From Vezdaea acicularis (Eukaryota), in NCBI GenBank assembly GCA_026025075.1, contig JAPEUI010000003.1:310001-338725 (forward strand): a stretch of DNA of 28,725 bases, in the 5' to 3' direction. Positions 11,374-16,794 of the stretch are shown piece by piece. The position numbers and the translations under genes are program-made. Position 1 is the first letter of the stretch. Each line of letters opens with the position of its first letter. A model generated the notes under the pieces. The model worked only from the letters and a program-made list of their open reading frames with translations. It did no database searches and had not been told where the DNA came from.

Positions 11374-12984
11374 ATGGCCACGGTGAATTTTATAACGTTT
11401 AATCAAGACCACAGTTGTCTTGCAGTTGGTCAGTTGTTGAGTCTCTTGCAGCAGCTCGAGCATACCTCAAAACAAGAACTGATTTCTTGCCTGCCACAGG
11501 AACATCTCGAGGATTCCGAATATATTACACAGACCCGTTCTCGAAATGCTACGAAAGCAAAGATGGGGACATCTCCCTGGTTGAGATGCTCTTCTCCACA
11601 TCCCTCGTAGCTCTGATACTCTCGCCAAGGCGCTTGCAAATCACGAATACAAAGGTAGGGCAAAAACATGATCCATATTACTCCGGCCGTGGGCACTTGC
11701 CGCCCTCAGAACGGGGTATAATACTTTTTCATGAGGACACTGGCCCCATCCGTTGATTTAATAGATCATGTTCTTGGTACTAACGACAATTCGTACTTAG
11801 AGAGCATCAACGATATGCGAGCTTACATTCCCCTCCTCAGTACTTGCAGTACGGTTGAATCGGAAACGATTAGTGGTGGTTCTCGAGGGGGAGATATATC
11901 TATATGACATTAGCAACATGAAACTTGCACACACAATCGAAACCTCACCTAATCCTCAAGGTATTATCTTATCCCGTACAACCCCCTACCTTTTAGAACA
12001 TACACCTCTAACAGCCGACCAGCGATATGCGCCCTCTCTTCATCCTCCGAATCCTGCTACCTCGCCTACCCCCTTCCCCAAAAAGCGATGCCCACCTCCT
12101 TTGCCCCCCCATCCCATGCACCTCCATCCAGCGGCGCCACAAACGCGCAGTTCATTGCCCCCACCACAGGCGACGTCCTCCTCTTCGACGCCCTTAAACA
12201 AGAAGCCATCAACGTCATCCCCGCGCACCGCTCGCCGCTCTCCTGCCTCGCCCTCAGCGCCGACGGCAAGCTCCTCGCCACCGCCTCCGACAAAGGCACC
12301 ATCATCCGCGTCTTCAGCGTTCCAGACGCCCAGAAACTCTTCCAATTCCGCCGCGGCACCTATCCCAGCCGCATCTACAGCATGGCCTTCAACGCAACCA
12401 ACACCCTCCTCTGCGTCTCCTCCGCAACCGACACCGTCCACATCTTCCGCCTCTCCGCCAGCCCCAACCCACCCCCCCCTAACCGCCCAGACTCTCCCAT
12501 CGAGCGCGGCCGCCTACGCGACTCCAGCCCCGCCATCCAATCCATCGCCAGCACCACCACCACCCAAGACCCCAGTCCCAGCCCGGACACTCCCTCGCGC
12601 AAGCACAACGGCAGCTTCGGAAGCATCATCCGCCGCTCCTCCCAAACCCTCGGCAAGTCCTTCGCCCAGTCCGTCGGCGGCTACCTCCCCACCGCCGTCA
12701 CCGAGATGTGGGAGCCCGCCCGCGACTTTGCCTACTGCAAGATCCCCAAGAGCGCGCTTGCCCAGAGTCCCGGGCCTGGCGGGGCGCCGCTGCAGCAGCA
12801 GACGCTTGGTGGCGCCCCCCTGAGGAGTGTGGTTGCGATCAGTAGCTCGAGTCCGCAGGTCATGGTTGTTACGAGTGAGGGCCTCTTTTATGTGTTTAAT
12901 GTCGATATGGAGGCGGGGGGGGAGGGCGTGCTGTGTAAACAGTACTCACTCGTAGAGGAGATGGGAAGTTTGGGGGATGAGTAG
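11374..12984 (+). CDS. ATG18: Autophagy PROPPIN Atg18 (WD40 phosphoinositide-binding protein). Exons 11374-11428, 11500-11654, 11801-11960, 12023-12984
   Basis: [54 protein letters not shown] and the lipid-binding FRRG motif. Three frame-preserving GT-AG introns. Confidence 0.96.
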
Positions 12985-13489
12985 GATGGGCAGACCTGGG
13001 GGCCAATGGAGGGTAGTGGGATGAGTTGAACGGATCATGTACTGTACTGTAAGAAATGTAGGCTGTTGAAAGGGCATCAAGCCCACGCGAACTCTCCCAT
13101 AACCACAAGCACAAGCACACAAGCAAGCAAACCACACACGTACACCCATTCAGAAAAGCCATACAATCTAACCCTCCCCCACCAGAACCAAATCAAAGGC
13201 AAAAAACAAATGGGGTATCTCCCCGCAATCCACACCCCCCCCCCGCGCAATTCCCCTGCGCTAAGAGTGAAAAACTCCATAGCCACCCAAACCCAGATTA
13301 CCCAGATGAAAGAGCCGTCCCGCGTGAGCATTGACTCACTAATCTCCAAGACATTAAGAGAAAAGGGTGAGTGAGTAGGTTGGTTGGTGGAGGGTTGTGT
13401 GTGTACAAAGCTGCGGAGGCCGCTGCAAGATGCAAGATACATGTATGTGCAAAACAAGAAAAGAAAATCTCCGGTCCGTCCGCGTGGAA

Positions 13490-13510
13490 GAGGAGGAGGA
13501 GGAGGAGGAG
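13490..13510. repeat. (GAG)7 microsatellite
   Basis: Read directly from the sequence. Confidence 0.9.
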
Positions 13511-13740
13511 GGGATATGAGCCGCTGGTCTCTGATAGGTTGGCTAGGGCGAAGGTGCGGGATATGTCCGAAGAAAGAGGGGGTGGGCGTAGTGCTGGGTA
13601 TGTTCGTTATGCGGACAGCCAGACAGAGAGAGGGATGGGTGGTGGTGTACCCTTCTTCTTCTTCCTCTGCTGCTAGTGACGGTGGTGATGGTAGCGGTGC
13701 TGGTGGTGCTGTTGTTCTAGATGTATCAACGCCGCGGTGT

Positions 13741-13984
13741 CGTGGTCCCCAAGAGTAAAGACCGGGTACTTTTGTTTTGTTGTCATGAAACCTCCTCTCC
13801 CTCCCCAGCCTTTCTTTTCCCGCTCCCGCTCTCCCGACGCGAAACGCCGTGGTCCCCAAGAGTAAAGACCGGATACTTTTGTCATGTAAAGCCCCCCTTC
13901 CCCCTCCCCCTCCCACCCACCCTGCCCTTGCTCCCCCAACTCAAAACGCCGTGGTCCCCAAGAGTAAAGACCCCATACTTTTGT
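13741..13984. repeat. Three direct copies of the 35-nt core CGTGGTCCCCAAGAGTAAAGACC-nnn-TACTTTTGT (13741-13775, 13848-13882, 13950-13984), separated by diverged C-rich linkers
   Basis: 32 of 35 positions are identical in all three copies; start-to-start spacing is 107 and 102 nt. A partial fourth copy AAAGACCGGATAC lies at 14138-14150. Confidence 0.95.
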
Positions 13985-14038
13985 CTATCCGCCAATTAAG
14001 CCCACCGTTCATCACATCATTCATCATTATCATACTCG

Positions 14039-14540
14039 CATTACTGCCCAACCTATCTCTACACATCACTCCAGCAACCACCGCACACGCATCGACGCCA
14101 ACACCGCTGTAGTAGCTGCCAGCAGCCACTACACCAAAAAGACCGGATACATTCCCAAAACCCCACCTTCACCGGTTCAACGCGCACAACGACCAGGCCT
14201 CCCAAGAGCCCCCGATGCCGTCTCCCCAAGCACCACGTAGTCTCCTTCCCACCGGCTCGCTCCGCGCGCACGCCAACATGCTGTCGTCAGCCTGACTGGC
14301 ACCGACGAGTGGACTCGTCGGGAGCAGGCATATCATCCTAGGCATGAGTGGCGGCAGCGGCGGAGGCGAGGGTCAGTGGGAGGGTAGCTGCGTGGTGCTT
14401 GGAGAGAGAGATCGGGTGTGGGAGGGTGCTGGTAGGGCTGCGTTGGGGGTGAAAGGCGGGAGGAGGGAGGTACCTGGTTTTTGGGGGTTGGCGAGATGGG
14501 AGGTGGCTCTGGACTGTACAAGAGAAAATGGTTAGTATGG
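14039..14540 (-). other. Long imperfect inverted repeat / predicted rod-like RNA fold-back downstream of the ULP1 stop codon
   Basis: Apical perfect stem 14302-14310/14313-14321; 20-nt near-perfect stem 14221-14240/14388-14407; more than ten further nested, collinear helices out to ~14039/14540; side hairpin at 14108-14133. Confidence 0.8.
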
Positions 14541-14594
14541 TTTGGTTGGAGGGGCGAAGTGGGGGGAGATAAAGCGCAAGGGGATAAGACGTAC
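14514..14594 (-). other. Putative 81-nt spliceosomal intron in the ULP1 3' UTR
   Basis: Minus-strand GTACGT donor at 14594, perfect TACTAAC branch point at 14537-14531, pyrimidine tract, TACAG acceptor ending at 14514. It starts 43 nt after the stop codon. Confidence 0.65.
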
Positions 14595-14637: not shown

Positions 14638-16794
14638 CTACTCGTAAGTAGCGCCCATCAGCTCCGCCGCCATCCTCCGTCGCTGGAGGGGAATATCGGT
14701 TTGGTCATAAGCGGTGAGGGGATCAAGGCCGAGTGAGAGCATCTTCGCCGTCGTGCACAAGAAGACGCCACAGTCGGAGCCGTTTTGCTGGCGGCCGCTG
14801 TCTGGGGGAAGGATGGTCCACTCTTCTCGTTTGAACTCAGTCTTGAGCTCGTGCTGCAGCCATTTGAAGGTTTGCATGATCTTGTGGGTGCCGGCGTCTC
14901 CGAAGCTGTCATAGTAGGCAATGGTCTTCTTGGTGGGGCAGGCGACGAGGATTGTCCAGTGCAGGCCCTGATTAACCGGAATGAAGACGTAGTCGACCTT
15001 GAGGAGGTTGCTCTTATCGATCTTGGCCCGCTTGGACCACCTGTCTAGCGACTTAACACCGCTCGAGGAAAGCTTCTTGTAGAAAAAGCTGTTGAAGGCG
15101 TGGAATTTGGGAGTTGTGCCGGGCGTTTGTCCGTGGTTGGCGTGTCGTGTGATTAGCTCGAGATAGTTGTTGATGATCTCGTCGTTCAGCCATCCATGGG
15201 CGGGATCACCTTTACCGGGGAGGAGCGTACCAAAATCTTTACGTGTTATGGTGGTGTTGGTGGGCGTCGTGGCAAGGATGGCTGCACGGTCATCGATCTG
15301 CATCGCGCGATCTACCTTCCAGTTCCATTCGTCGGTCAAAGGCTTGACGGCCCTTTGAGACGGCGGCACACGACCGTCGGCGATTGCCTTGAGGTGTTCA
15401 GCATGTTGCCGTTTAGCTGTTGTTTCCTTTACCTGGGCAATCGCTTCCAGCACCTCGCGTGCTTTACGTTCCTTCCTCATCTTTTCAATCTTGGCCTTCT
15501 CGACTGGGTCCATATCTTCTCTGAGAGGGATTTGTCGAAGCTTTTCTACGACACTCAATGGCCGACCTTCTGGGGTATGGGTGCAATAACGTAAACCAGG
15601 TTGGGGAAATGAACCTGGGTGAGGGACGAACCCCTGCCCTGCCTTTTCGGCGGGCCATTGGCCCTTGTGAGTCATTGCGTAGATATTCGCTGCAACAGCT
15701 CGAAAATCGATATCTTGGATTTTGGTCGGTATGTTGTTCGAATGGGATGGAGGTGATGGCAGGTCTTGCGAGGGATACGTCTTTGCTTTAGGCGTTTGCT
15801 GATACCTCTTTGGAATCGACACGCCCGCAAGCTCCTTAGGTGCCTGAACATGGCCTGGTGAAGGCGTTTGTCGATACCTCTTTGGAATCGATACGCCCGC
15901 AAGTTCCTTAGGTGCCTGAACACGGCCTGGTGAAGGTGTTTTGCGGACGGGCTCGGGCACCTGTTCACGACGCGATATGGAGGGCTGTGGATACCTTGCA
16001 AGAAGGGGAGCTCGTGGAAGTGGACTTGTAGGGCTAATCAGTGCATCGAGAGGGGGTACTGCATGTGGTCGGCGTTTTGGGTAAGTCACGGCCTGAGCCA
16101 CGCGGTCGGCAATCCTCATCGACCGCCTGAGTTGTATCGAGTCCTGTACAAAGCTCCTGCGATCTAGGGGAAGCGGCGTGAATTTTGCGTAGTGGAGATG
16201 CTGTTCTTCAGGCGAGAGGCCCTTCGGTGCAGCTGGTAGAGCGGTCCTTTTAGGAGGAGTAGCCAGTGAGCACATTCGGGCGATTTTCAACTGGAATGTG
16301 CTCAATTGTATAGGTGGATTCATTGGGACGGCTTCTAGGATCAAAGCAAGTCAGCCCATGACACTGGAAGCCACGAAAGACATTATTTCGAGCTCTGGAG
16401 GGATTGTGGAACTCACCCGGAGGGTCTATATCCATTTTCTCAGGCAATACAGGTTTCTCAGTCGTCTCTCCACGTTCGAGATCAACGCTAGCTATAAGAT
16501 CAACCGGGTACGAGCCAGGAAGAACCGGTTCGTAGTAGGGCAACAGGTCTTTGTCGGATTCAGCAGAAGCAGCGAGAAGTTCTCGAGAGCGTGTGAGACC
16601 CCAAAGAACAGCCATCATATGTAAGTTACGAACGATCGCTTGGAAGGCCGCTTTTGCCTTGAGAAGCAAGAGTTGTGAGTACCACACCGATCGGTCGGGA
16701 AGAGGAGGAGGAAACGACATACCCTTCGGACGATGGCCCAGTCCCGACGCATGAAGCGCCGGCGGGCCCCTCTGGCCACGTCCTTAAAGGACAT
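14638..16794 (-). CDS. ULP1: Ulp1-family SUMO protease (peptidase C48). Exons 16794-16723, 16657-16417, 16334-14638; the start codon is tentative
   Basis: WLNDEIIN, FNSFFY, catalytic His (GLHWT), Asp (YYDS), Gln/Cys (QQNGSDCGVF). Upstream ORFs join in frame through GTATGT..TACTCAC..AAG and GTGAGT..GCTGAC..TAG introns. Confidence 0.9.
15791..15934 (-). repeat. 72-bp tandem duplication (2 x 24 aa) in the ULP1 N-terminal region
   Basis: 15791-15862 and 15863-15934 differ at 5 positions; they encode TPSPG(R/H)VQAPKELAGVSIPKRY(R/Q)Q. Confidence 0.95.

Follow-up and report, generated by a model that had tools for sequence, protein, structure and literature searches.

An array of three near-identical 35-nt cores, candidate plus-strand pseudoknot modules, between the converging ATG18 and ULP1 genes of a filamentous ascomycete

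The 28,725-nt stretch of DNA analysed here (the window) contains an array of three short repeats that is real, specific to its lineage, present at a single locus and probably constrained. The 35-nt cores are located at 13741..13775 (copy 1), 13848..13882 (copy 2) and 13950..13984 (copy 3). As the initial annotation stated, they are spaced by 107 and 102 nt and are identical outside one triplet, which is GGG in copy 1, GGA in copy 2 and CCA in copy 3. We estimate the chance that the cores are functional at about two thirds. Our best reading, which is based on predicted folding and which we favour only tentatively, is that they are pseudoknot modules of an RNA transcribed from the plus strand.

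The conserved block extends 6 nt 5' of the core (AACGCC), so that copies 2 and 3, with their shared flanks at 13842-13847 and 13944-13949, are identical in 39 of 41 nt (core plus flank). The initial annotation proposed a genome-wide search for the motif. A 20-nt word of the core, with up to two mismatches allowed, finds only these three matches in the 18.9-Mb genome, and region 13700-14500 matches itself alone in a search of its own genome that skips simple repeats. Within its own contig of 338,725 nt, the array is one of only four local repeat groups with an exact 18-mer. A MITE or foldback transposon was considered and rejected, as there are no dispersed copies, the cores lie outside the long inverted repeat next to the array and no target-site duplication was seen by eye. 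Rfam, which covers snoRNAs, riboswitches, ribozymes and CRISPR repeats among others, gave no matches in the window at the gathering score. Eight weak matches (E up to 10) between 12950 and 14700 included none on a core and none near the cut-off, and we regard them as chance. SRP RNA, telomerase RNA, hammerhead and twister ribozymes and snoRNAs were dropped as candidates for lack of an Rfam match. No description of the array was found in the literature searched, which was largely without subscription papers.

The array is located in an interval of 1.65 kb between the stop codons of ATG18 (plus strand, 12984) and ULP1 (minus strand, 14638), whose 3' ends converge. It lies 650-900 nt 3' of the ULP1 stop and 750-1000 nt 3' of the ATG18 stop. 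The last coding stretch of ATG18, which encodes a PROPPIN, is at 12088..12984 (+), and the ORF of the SUMO protease ULP1 (Peptidase_C48) is at 14638..16344 (-). The host is a filamentous ascomycete and the best named ULP1 homologues come from lichen-forming and related Pezizomycotina, with 44-50% identity. The ULP1 protein continues for 45 residues past the DCG motif, compared with 44-67 residues (5th-95th percentile) in 120 homologue matches. Since it ends where its homologues end, the sequence from 14637 downwards is untranslated, and a C-terminal extension of ULP1 is unlikely. The N-terminal region of ULP1 contains a 72-nt in-frame tandem duplication at 15790-15933. Near window position 12000, inside ATG18, GC content jumps from about 0.49 to roughly 0.58, and a strong C-then-G skew runs along the genes to the right of it.

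Predicted intron-like stretches are present on both sides of the interval. Past the ULP1 stop, the minus strand contains a canonical stretch (A, 14514..14594) at a distance of 44 nt that fits the strict pattern, and a weaker one (B, 14338..14473) that fits the loose pattern only and lies nearly entirely within the right arm of the long inverted repeat. On the plus strand, a canonical stretch that fits the strict pattern (13049..13185) is found 65 nt past the ATG18 stop and is followed by a weaker one (13367..13546). In 400-nt control flanks the strict pattern occurred in 0 of 39 in sense and 1 of 39 in antisense orientation. The intron-like stretches past ATG18 suggest, at the level of sequence, a plus transcript heading towards the array.

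The array does not look like coding sequence. Its frames have dicodon scores of -0.25 to +0.07, whereas the 5th percentile of coding pieces is 0.12, which makes them non-coding or borderline, and no Pfam match at the cut-off was found in the 30 frames scanned of the 41 listed. As initially annotated, no reading frame is kept over all three copies, since 107 is not a multiple of three. A protein-coding repeat or a set of duplicated micro-exons was rejected because of this frame-breaking spacing, the absence of third-position changes and the negative coding statistics and Pfam search. A 279-aa ORF on the minus strand had no Atlas match. A 92-codon ATG-to-TAA frame on the plus strand (13721-13999) encloses the entire array; its score of -0.25 is non-coding. 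Another plus frame, 13030-13758, spans 243 codons that are interrupted by one stop only, at 13372 within the intron-like stretch 13367-13546, and terminates at a TAA within core 1. It might represent a small spliced gene; the piece 13186-13365 has a coding score of 0.24 and its homologue search was negative.

The linkers between the cores record how the array was formed. The initial annotation described them as strongly diverged, and linker 1 (13776..13847; C-rich on the plus strand, with G-runs on the minus strand) and linker 2 (13883..13949) indeed differ by 33% substitutions (44 matches, 22 mismatches and 9 gap columns), but they are still homologous, as none of 2000 shuffles scored as well. 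The linker interiors alone do not beat shuffles (570/2000). Since the linkers align end to end, the duplication unit was about 105 nt, and the alignment shows that the cores arose by local tandem duplication of this unit. Linker segments 13883-13949 and 13790-13835 each have at least five G-runs on the minus strand and may form G-quadruplexes.

Two more copies of the core, both decayed, are located at the two ends of the long inverted repeat. A fourth copy of the 3' part of the core, with a 4-nt deletion, forms the outer end of the left arm (14132..14153; 0/2000 shuffles). An inverted fifth copy (14466..14495, minus strand; 19 matches, 11 mismatches and 11 gap columns; 7/2000 shuffles) holds a donor-like site at 14473. 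The 13-nt identity of the array with 14138-14150, which had been described as an echo of one hairpin arm, is real, and none of 45 other 600-nt tiles of the window shares a word longer than 10 nt. Because the fourth and fifth copies sit at both hairpin ends, this echo and the complementarity of the cores to the donor region follow from descent. A small hairpin (14108-14133) is inserted in the left arm and splits the decayed fourth copy. The three array cores differ at only 1-3 of 34 positions (3-9%), against 22 of 66 in the linkers (Fisher p 3e-4 to 7e-3), and the decay of the copies in the hairpin arms is comparable to that of the linkers. Provided that the duplications happened at similar times, the decay of the arm copies argues against a core that merely mutates slowly.

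The long imperfect inverted repeat itself spans 14096..14493, with its centre near 14311, and is the strongest local one among 1353 windows of the contig (score 176, median 30). Region 14120-14500 has fold z-scores of -8.8 and -9.2 on the two strands. As the hairpin folds equally on both strands and has no G-U bias (12 on plus, 11 on minus), it does not reveal which strand is transcribed. No comparable inverted repeat was found in 39 ULP1 flanks of relatives, where the best score was 62 against 178 for the window.

The crossing plus-strand stems proposed by the initial annotation are present, one of 4 bp and one of 8 bp with one G-U pair. Together they fit an H-type pseudoknot of 12 bp, whose loops are 2, 2 and 3 nt long and which covers core positions 4-34 of 35 (13744-13774 in copy 1). 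A pseudoknot of at least 12 bp on either strand was found in 5 of 1500 dinucleotide shuffles and in 1 of 1500 35-mers drawn at random from the contig. The minus strand of the core permits 9 bp at most. The sole pair that is not Watson-Crick is G-U on the plus strand and would be A-C on the minus strand. Loop lengths such as these suit both grooves on the plus strand only. All three variable positions form the unpaired loop 3, and the paired positions are invariant over the three copies; hence there is no compensatory change. The variable triplet is also unpaired in the minus-strand hairpin and perhaps reflects two mutation events, which makes the loop-3 argument weak when taken alone. Each of the pseudoknot stems is weak by itself (-3.9 and -4.7 kcal/mol). 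In 60 kb of the contig a general descriptor gave 29 overlapping hits, which correspond to about 20 separate sites; within the 1.65-kb interval it picks out the three cores and nothing else. The 44,772 nt of relatives' ULP1 3' flanks contained no similar pseudoknot (53 overlapping hits in seven loci, none alike), and the pattern of both stems with variable loops had no match in viral, prokaryote and metagenome collections, from which records of very close relatives may be excluded. On the minus strand, each core taken singly has the hairpin proposed earlier as its structure of lowest energy (8 bp, about -8 kcal/mol), although z-scores of -0.7 to -1.05 do not set this hairpin apart from shuffles.

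In our best reading, a unit of about 105 nt was duplicated locally in tandem in the untranslated interval of the converging ATG18 (+) and ULP1 (-) genes. A core of 35-41 nt then stayed near constant, probably through purifying selection, while the linkers and the two copies caught in the neighbouring inverted duplication decayed. In a plus-strand RNA each core would fold as a compact H-type pseudoknot, spaced by C-rich and largely unstructured linkers. The RNA that carries them could extend ATG18 far in the 3' direction and be spliced, or it could be an independent RNA that is antisense to the ULP1 3' end. By analogy, the three modules might act additively as protein-binding or nuclease-slowing sites that set the stability or the 3' end of this RNA. 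The initial description of the cores as repeated structured elements is thus supported in that they outlast the linkers and have a pseudoknot that is rarer than chance; the protein binding that it included is suggested by analogy only.

Viral UTRs are known to use pseudoknots in tandem, and our literature search found none in fungal mRNA UTRs. The upstream pseudoknot domain of the TMV 3' UTR has a similar layout, with three small pseudoknots one after another in untranslated sequence, and it binds the host factor eEF1A and affects translation (PMC4683447). The TMV domain is viral, its pseudoknots are consecutive without long linkers and their structure was probed (PMC4683447), whereas the array is nuclear and fungal, with three near-identical cores about 105 nt apart and a predicted structure. 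The array would work like the TMV domain but is not a member of it, and no sequence relation is suspected. If the 31-nt modules fold and act, they would be a very small test object for elements born of local duplication.

Relatives have a structured element of their own in the ULP1 3' flank. We took 80 ULP1 loci, of which 45 were distinct and 41 of the distinct loci had enough flank. ATG18, the TBC gene, the dehydrogenase and BCD1 were neighbours in none of the 80 loci, and the array interval matched nothing in them beyond simple repeats or short chance words. Of these 41 loci, 27 have the word R[AT]TACCC within 700 nt on the downstream side of ULP1 (33 sense vs 4 antisense), and a bulged hairpin follows it at 7 of 34 such sites, compared with 1 of 86 sites elsewhere. 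The element was seen at L009:2606-2646, L032:4850-4886, L044:4903-5125 (three copies), L028:5446-5484, L020:4888-4929, L005:3162-3203, L010:5024-5064 and L013:5308-5346. In six hand-picked elements, 92% of the cells pair and three of eight pairs change on both sides. This covariation alone is not significant (47/500 shuffles), but it beats slid registers. When elements were left out in turn, seven of nine outscored everything in a background of 100 kb. The three copies in L044 are in tandem, 85 and 98 nt apart, and carry GNRA loops, and compensatory changes occur in the family. The hairpin had no Rfam match. The main texts of two surveys of fungal RNA structures mention neither ULP1 nor SUMO, while their supplements could list such loci (PMC8216456; PMC5640933). 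Literature searches for GATACCC/GAUACCC gave unrelated matches only, with the word absent from PMC4654594, and found no ULP1 3'-UTR element. From its sequence, the hairpin seems conserved in several distant filamentous ascomycetes and is apparently undescribed. With its compensatory changes and an independent triplication, it may matter as much as the array. Other structured repeats in two or three copies, unrelated to this hairpin, were seen in the ULP1 3' flanks of L013 (4890-5060) and L028 (4880-5090), and L013 has donor-like words 45 and 142 nt past the end of the match.

The hairpin of the relatives offers another explanation for the cores, which we consider possible but rather unlikely. 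Read on the minus strand in a long ULP1 3' UTR, they would be shortened descendants of the conserved element, multiplied as sites for an RNA-binding protein. The element would consist of RNUACCC and, after it, a hairpin whose 2-nt bulge is made of pyrimidines, and splicing of both 3'-UTR introns would remove most of the long hairpin upstream. The cores lie on the sense strand of ULP1 650-900 nt past its stop (relatives' elements: +120 to +750) and have the words TACCC, CCGGTC and CTC-YTGG in common with the element. R[AT]TACCC is sense-biased downstream of ULP1 in relatives, and GGCGTT (29 sense and 1 antisense in relatives) follows every core on the minus strand. The fold z-score of the minus strand changes from -4.0 to +0.9 once both predicted introns are removed (15 shuffles each), but 39 ULP1 flanks of relatives contain neither a strict sense intron nor, as mentioned above, a comparable inverted repeat. 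A 4-mer model of relatives' ULP1 3' flanks (33/41 correct when leaving one out) classified the array as a minus-strand 3' UTR with a score of -47, to which the G-rich linkers and the word GGCGTT contribute most. Another strand model, for which the own contig supplied the training data, lacked power (39/82 when leaving one out) and was not used. A relaxed profile of the three blocks TACC, CCGGTC and CTCCYGG, trained on relatives only, ranked copy 1 second in 677 kb (both strands, contig C223 only), while copy 2 was matched by 79 sites. This profile needs a shorter inner loop and an overlap that were chosen after seeing the core, so its rank overstates the case. With the spacing of the training set all copies fall to the background level (2.9 for copy 1), and copy 3 does not rise above it under the relaxed setting either. 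A covariance model of the six elements (R1) does not place the cores among its 10 matches in the window at E up to 10, although R1 also misses other likely members and finds only its six training elements. Compared with the hairpins of L009, L032, L044, L028, L020, L005 and L010, the cores share the gene, the strand and the words, and the triplication in L044 is a parallel, but they lack the upper stem, are missed by the covariance model and do not prefer the family-like fold (-4.0, -0.7 and +7.4 vs about -6.9 kcal/mol). Moreover, the only variable positions of the cores hit the TACCC run, in which the family does not vary. Nominally, the signals for the plus and the minus strand are of similar strength. 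We place the plus-strand pseudoknot ahead, as less tuning went into its test and the mutations occur where the plus fold predicts them and where the minus family forbids them. The two could also be combined, with the minus-strand ULP1 element as the origin of the cores and the plus-strand fold as their present constraint. In the most complete form of this view, which is hypothetical and which we find doubtful, a fungal RNA antisense to the ULP1 3' end would contain three identical 31-nt pseudoknots with C-rich spacers, followed by a 400-nt rod, and the pseudoknot would have arisen opposite an old ULP1 3'-UTR element, so that the core could serve both converging transcripts. A nuclear gene region would then contain a virus-like module of tandem pseudoknots that controls the stability or 3' ends of the messages of ATG18 (autophagy) and ULP1.

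It is also conceivable, though unlikely in our judgement, that the cores are not under selection at all. In this case the region would be prone to duplication, linkers with G- and C-runs would decay fast, and slow mutation or short conversion tracts would keep the cores alike; the array would then be a lineage-specific repeat of little interest. The single locus and the homology of the linkers fit this, and so do the lack of G-U strand bias in the long hairpin and the other decayed inverted repeats of the same contig. Local repeats are found in 9 of 39 ULP1 flanks of relatives, in 6 of 52 other flanks there that served as controls and in 5 of 115 flanks of the own contig. In a post-hoc simulation of uniform decay that takes the best window into account, the p-value for core conservation is 0.012 at 25% and 0.040 at 22% divergence, and it would be 0.4 if overall divergence were 15%. 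The initial annotation expected of a neutral duplication that the linkers would be as conserved as the cores once homopolymer slippage is allowed for, and that relatives would lack the motif. Homologue searches were indeed negative, but many of the linker differences are point substitutions outside runs, and in homopolymer-compressed linkers just 30 of 46 columns are identical, so that the gap between cores and linkers persists. The decay of the same core sequence within the hairpin arms and the fit to a 12-bp pseudoknot (p about 0.001-0.003) also speak against neutrality. Far less probable than either of these is the earlier proposal that the cores are Dscam-like selectors, with the splice-donor region at 14473 as the site for which they and the hairpin arm vie. 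On the minus strand this region shows partial complementarity to the cores (7/2000 shuffles), and 14473 can start an intron under the loose pattern. However, this complementarity is to be expected, since the donor region is itself an inverted core copy, and in the ensemble fold of 14637-13720 the donor pairs with the arm over 11.6 of 13 nt and with any core over 0.0. Donor-core duplexes have energies of -17.5 to -19.3 kcal/mol, compared with -25.2 kcal/mol for donor-arm, and such energies are common: 13% of 5737 random windows reach -18 kcal/mol, and roughly 10-15% of random windows match the donor-core values. The minus strand also has no branch point and acceptor between the copies and thus no exon cassette per copy. 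In Dscam, every alternative exon has a selector next to it, and the docking site lies unpaired in an intron (PMC4691838). As in Dscam (PMC4691838), several similar short sequences are complementary to one site near a splice junction, but the array lacks an exon per copy and its site is locked in a 130-bp hairpin. The selector model is therefore rejected on the modelled folds, co-transcriptional effects apart.

Structured non-coding parts of Pezizomycotina genes have been described before. They include 3' UTR structures of thioredoxin, RING-finger and thioesterase genes in fungi (PMC8216456) and motifs of hexA, ies6 and SART-1 (PMC5640933). Structure on the antisense strand thus has precedents in ies6 and SART-1, while in hexA a splice site is covered by a hairpin; further structures in UTRs, introns and antisense transcripts of fungi are given in PMC2467506. 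The array resembles the structures in the first two of these surveys in being a putatively structured, non-coding element, but those structures show covariation over many genomes and are mostly single-copy (PMC8216456; PMC5640933). Other foldbacks and repeats were observed on contig C223. These include a 300-nt intergenic foldback beside a tRNA-like gene (about 115,090-115,390), a decayed intergenic inverted repeat of 330 nt (about 233,750-234,080) and a MITE-like intergenic element of 240 nt with perfect 30-nt ends (about 307,310-307,550). Minisatellites with 8-nt and 19/38-nt units are present in 3' flanks at about 102,780-103,080 and 233,330-233,580.
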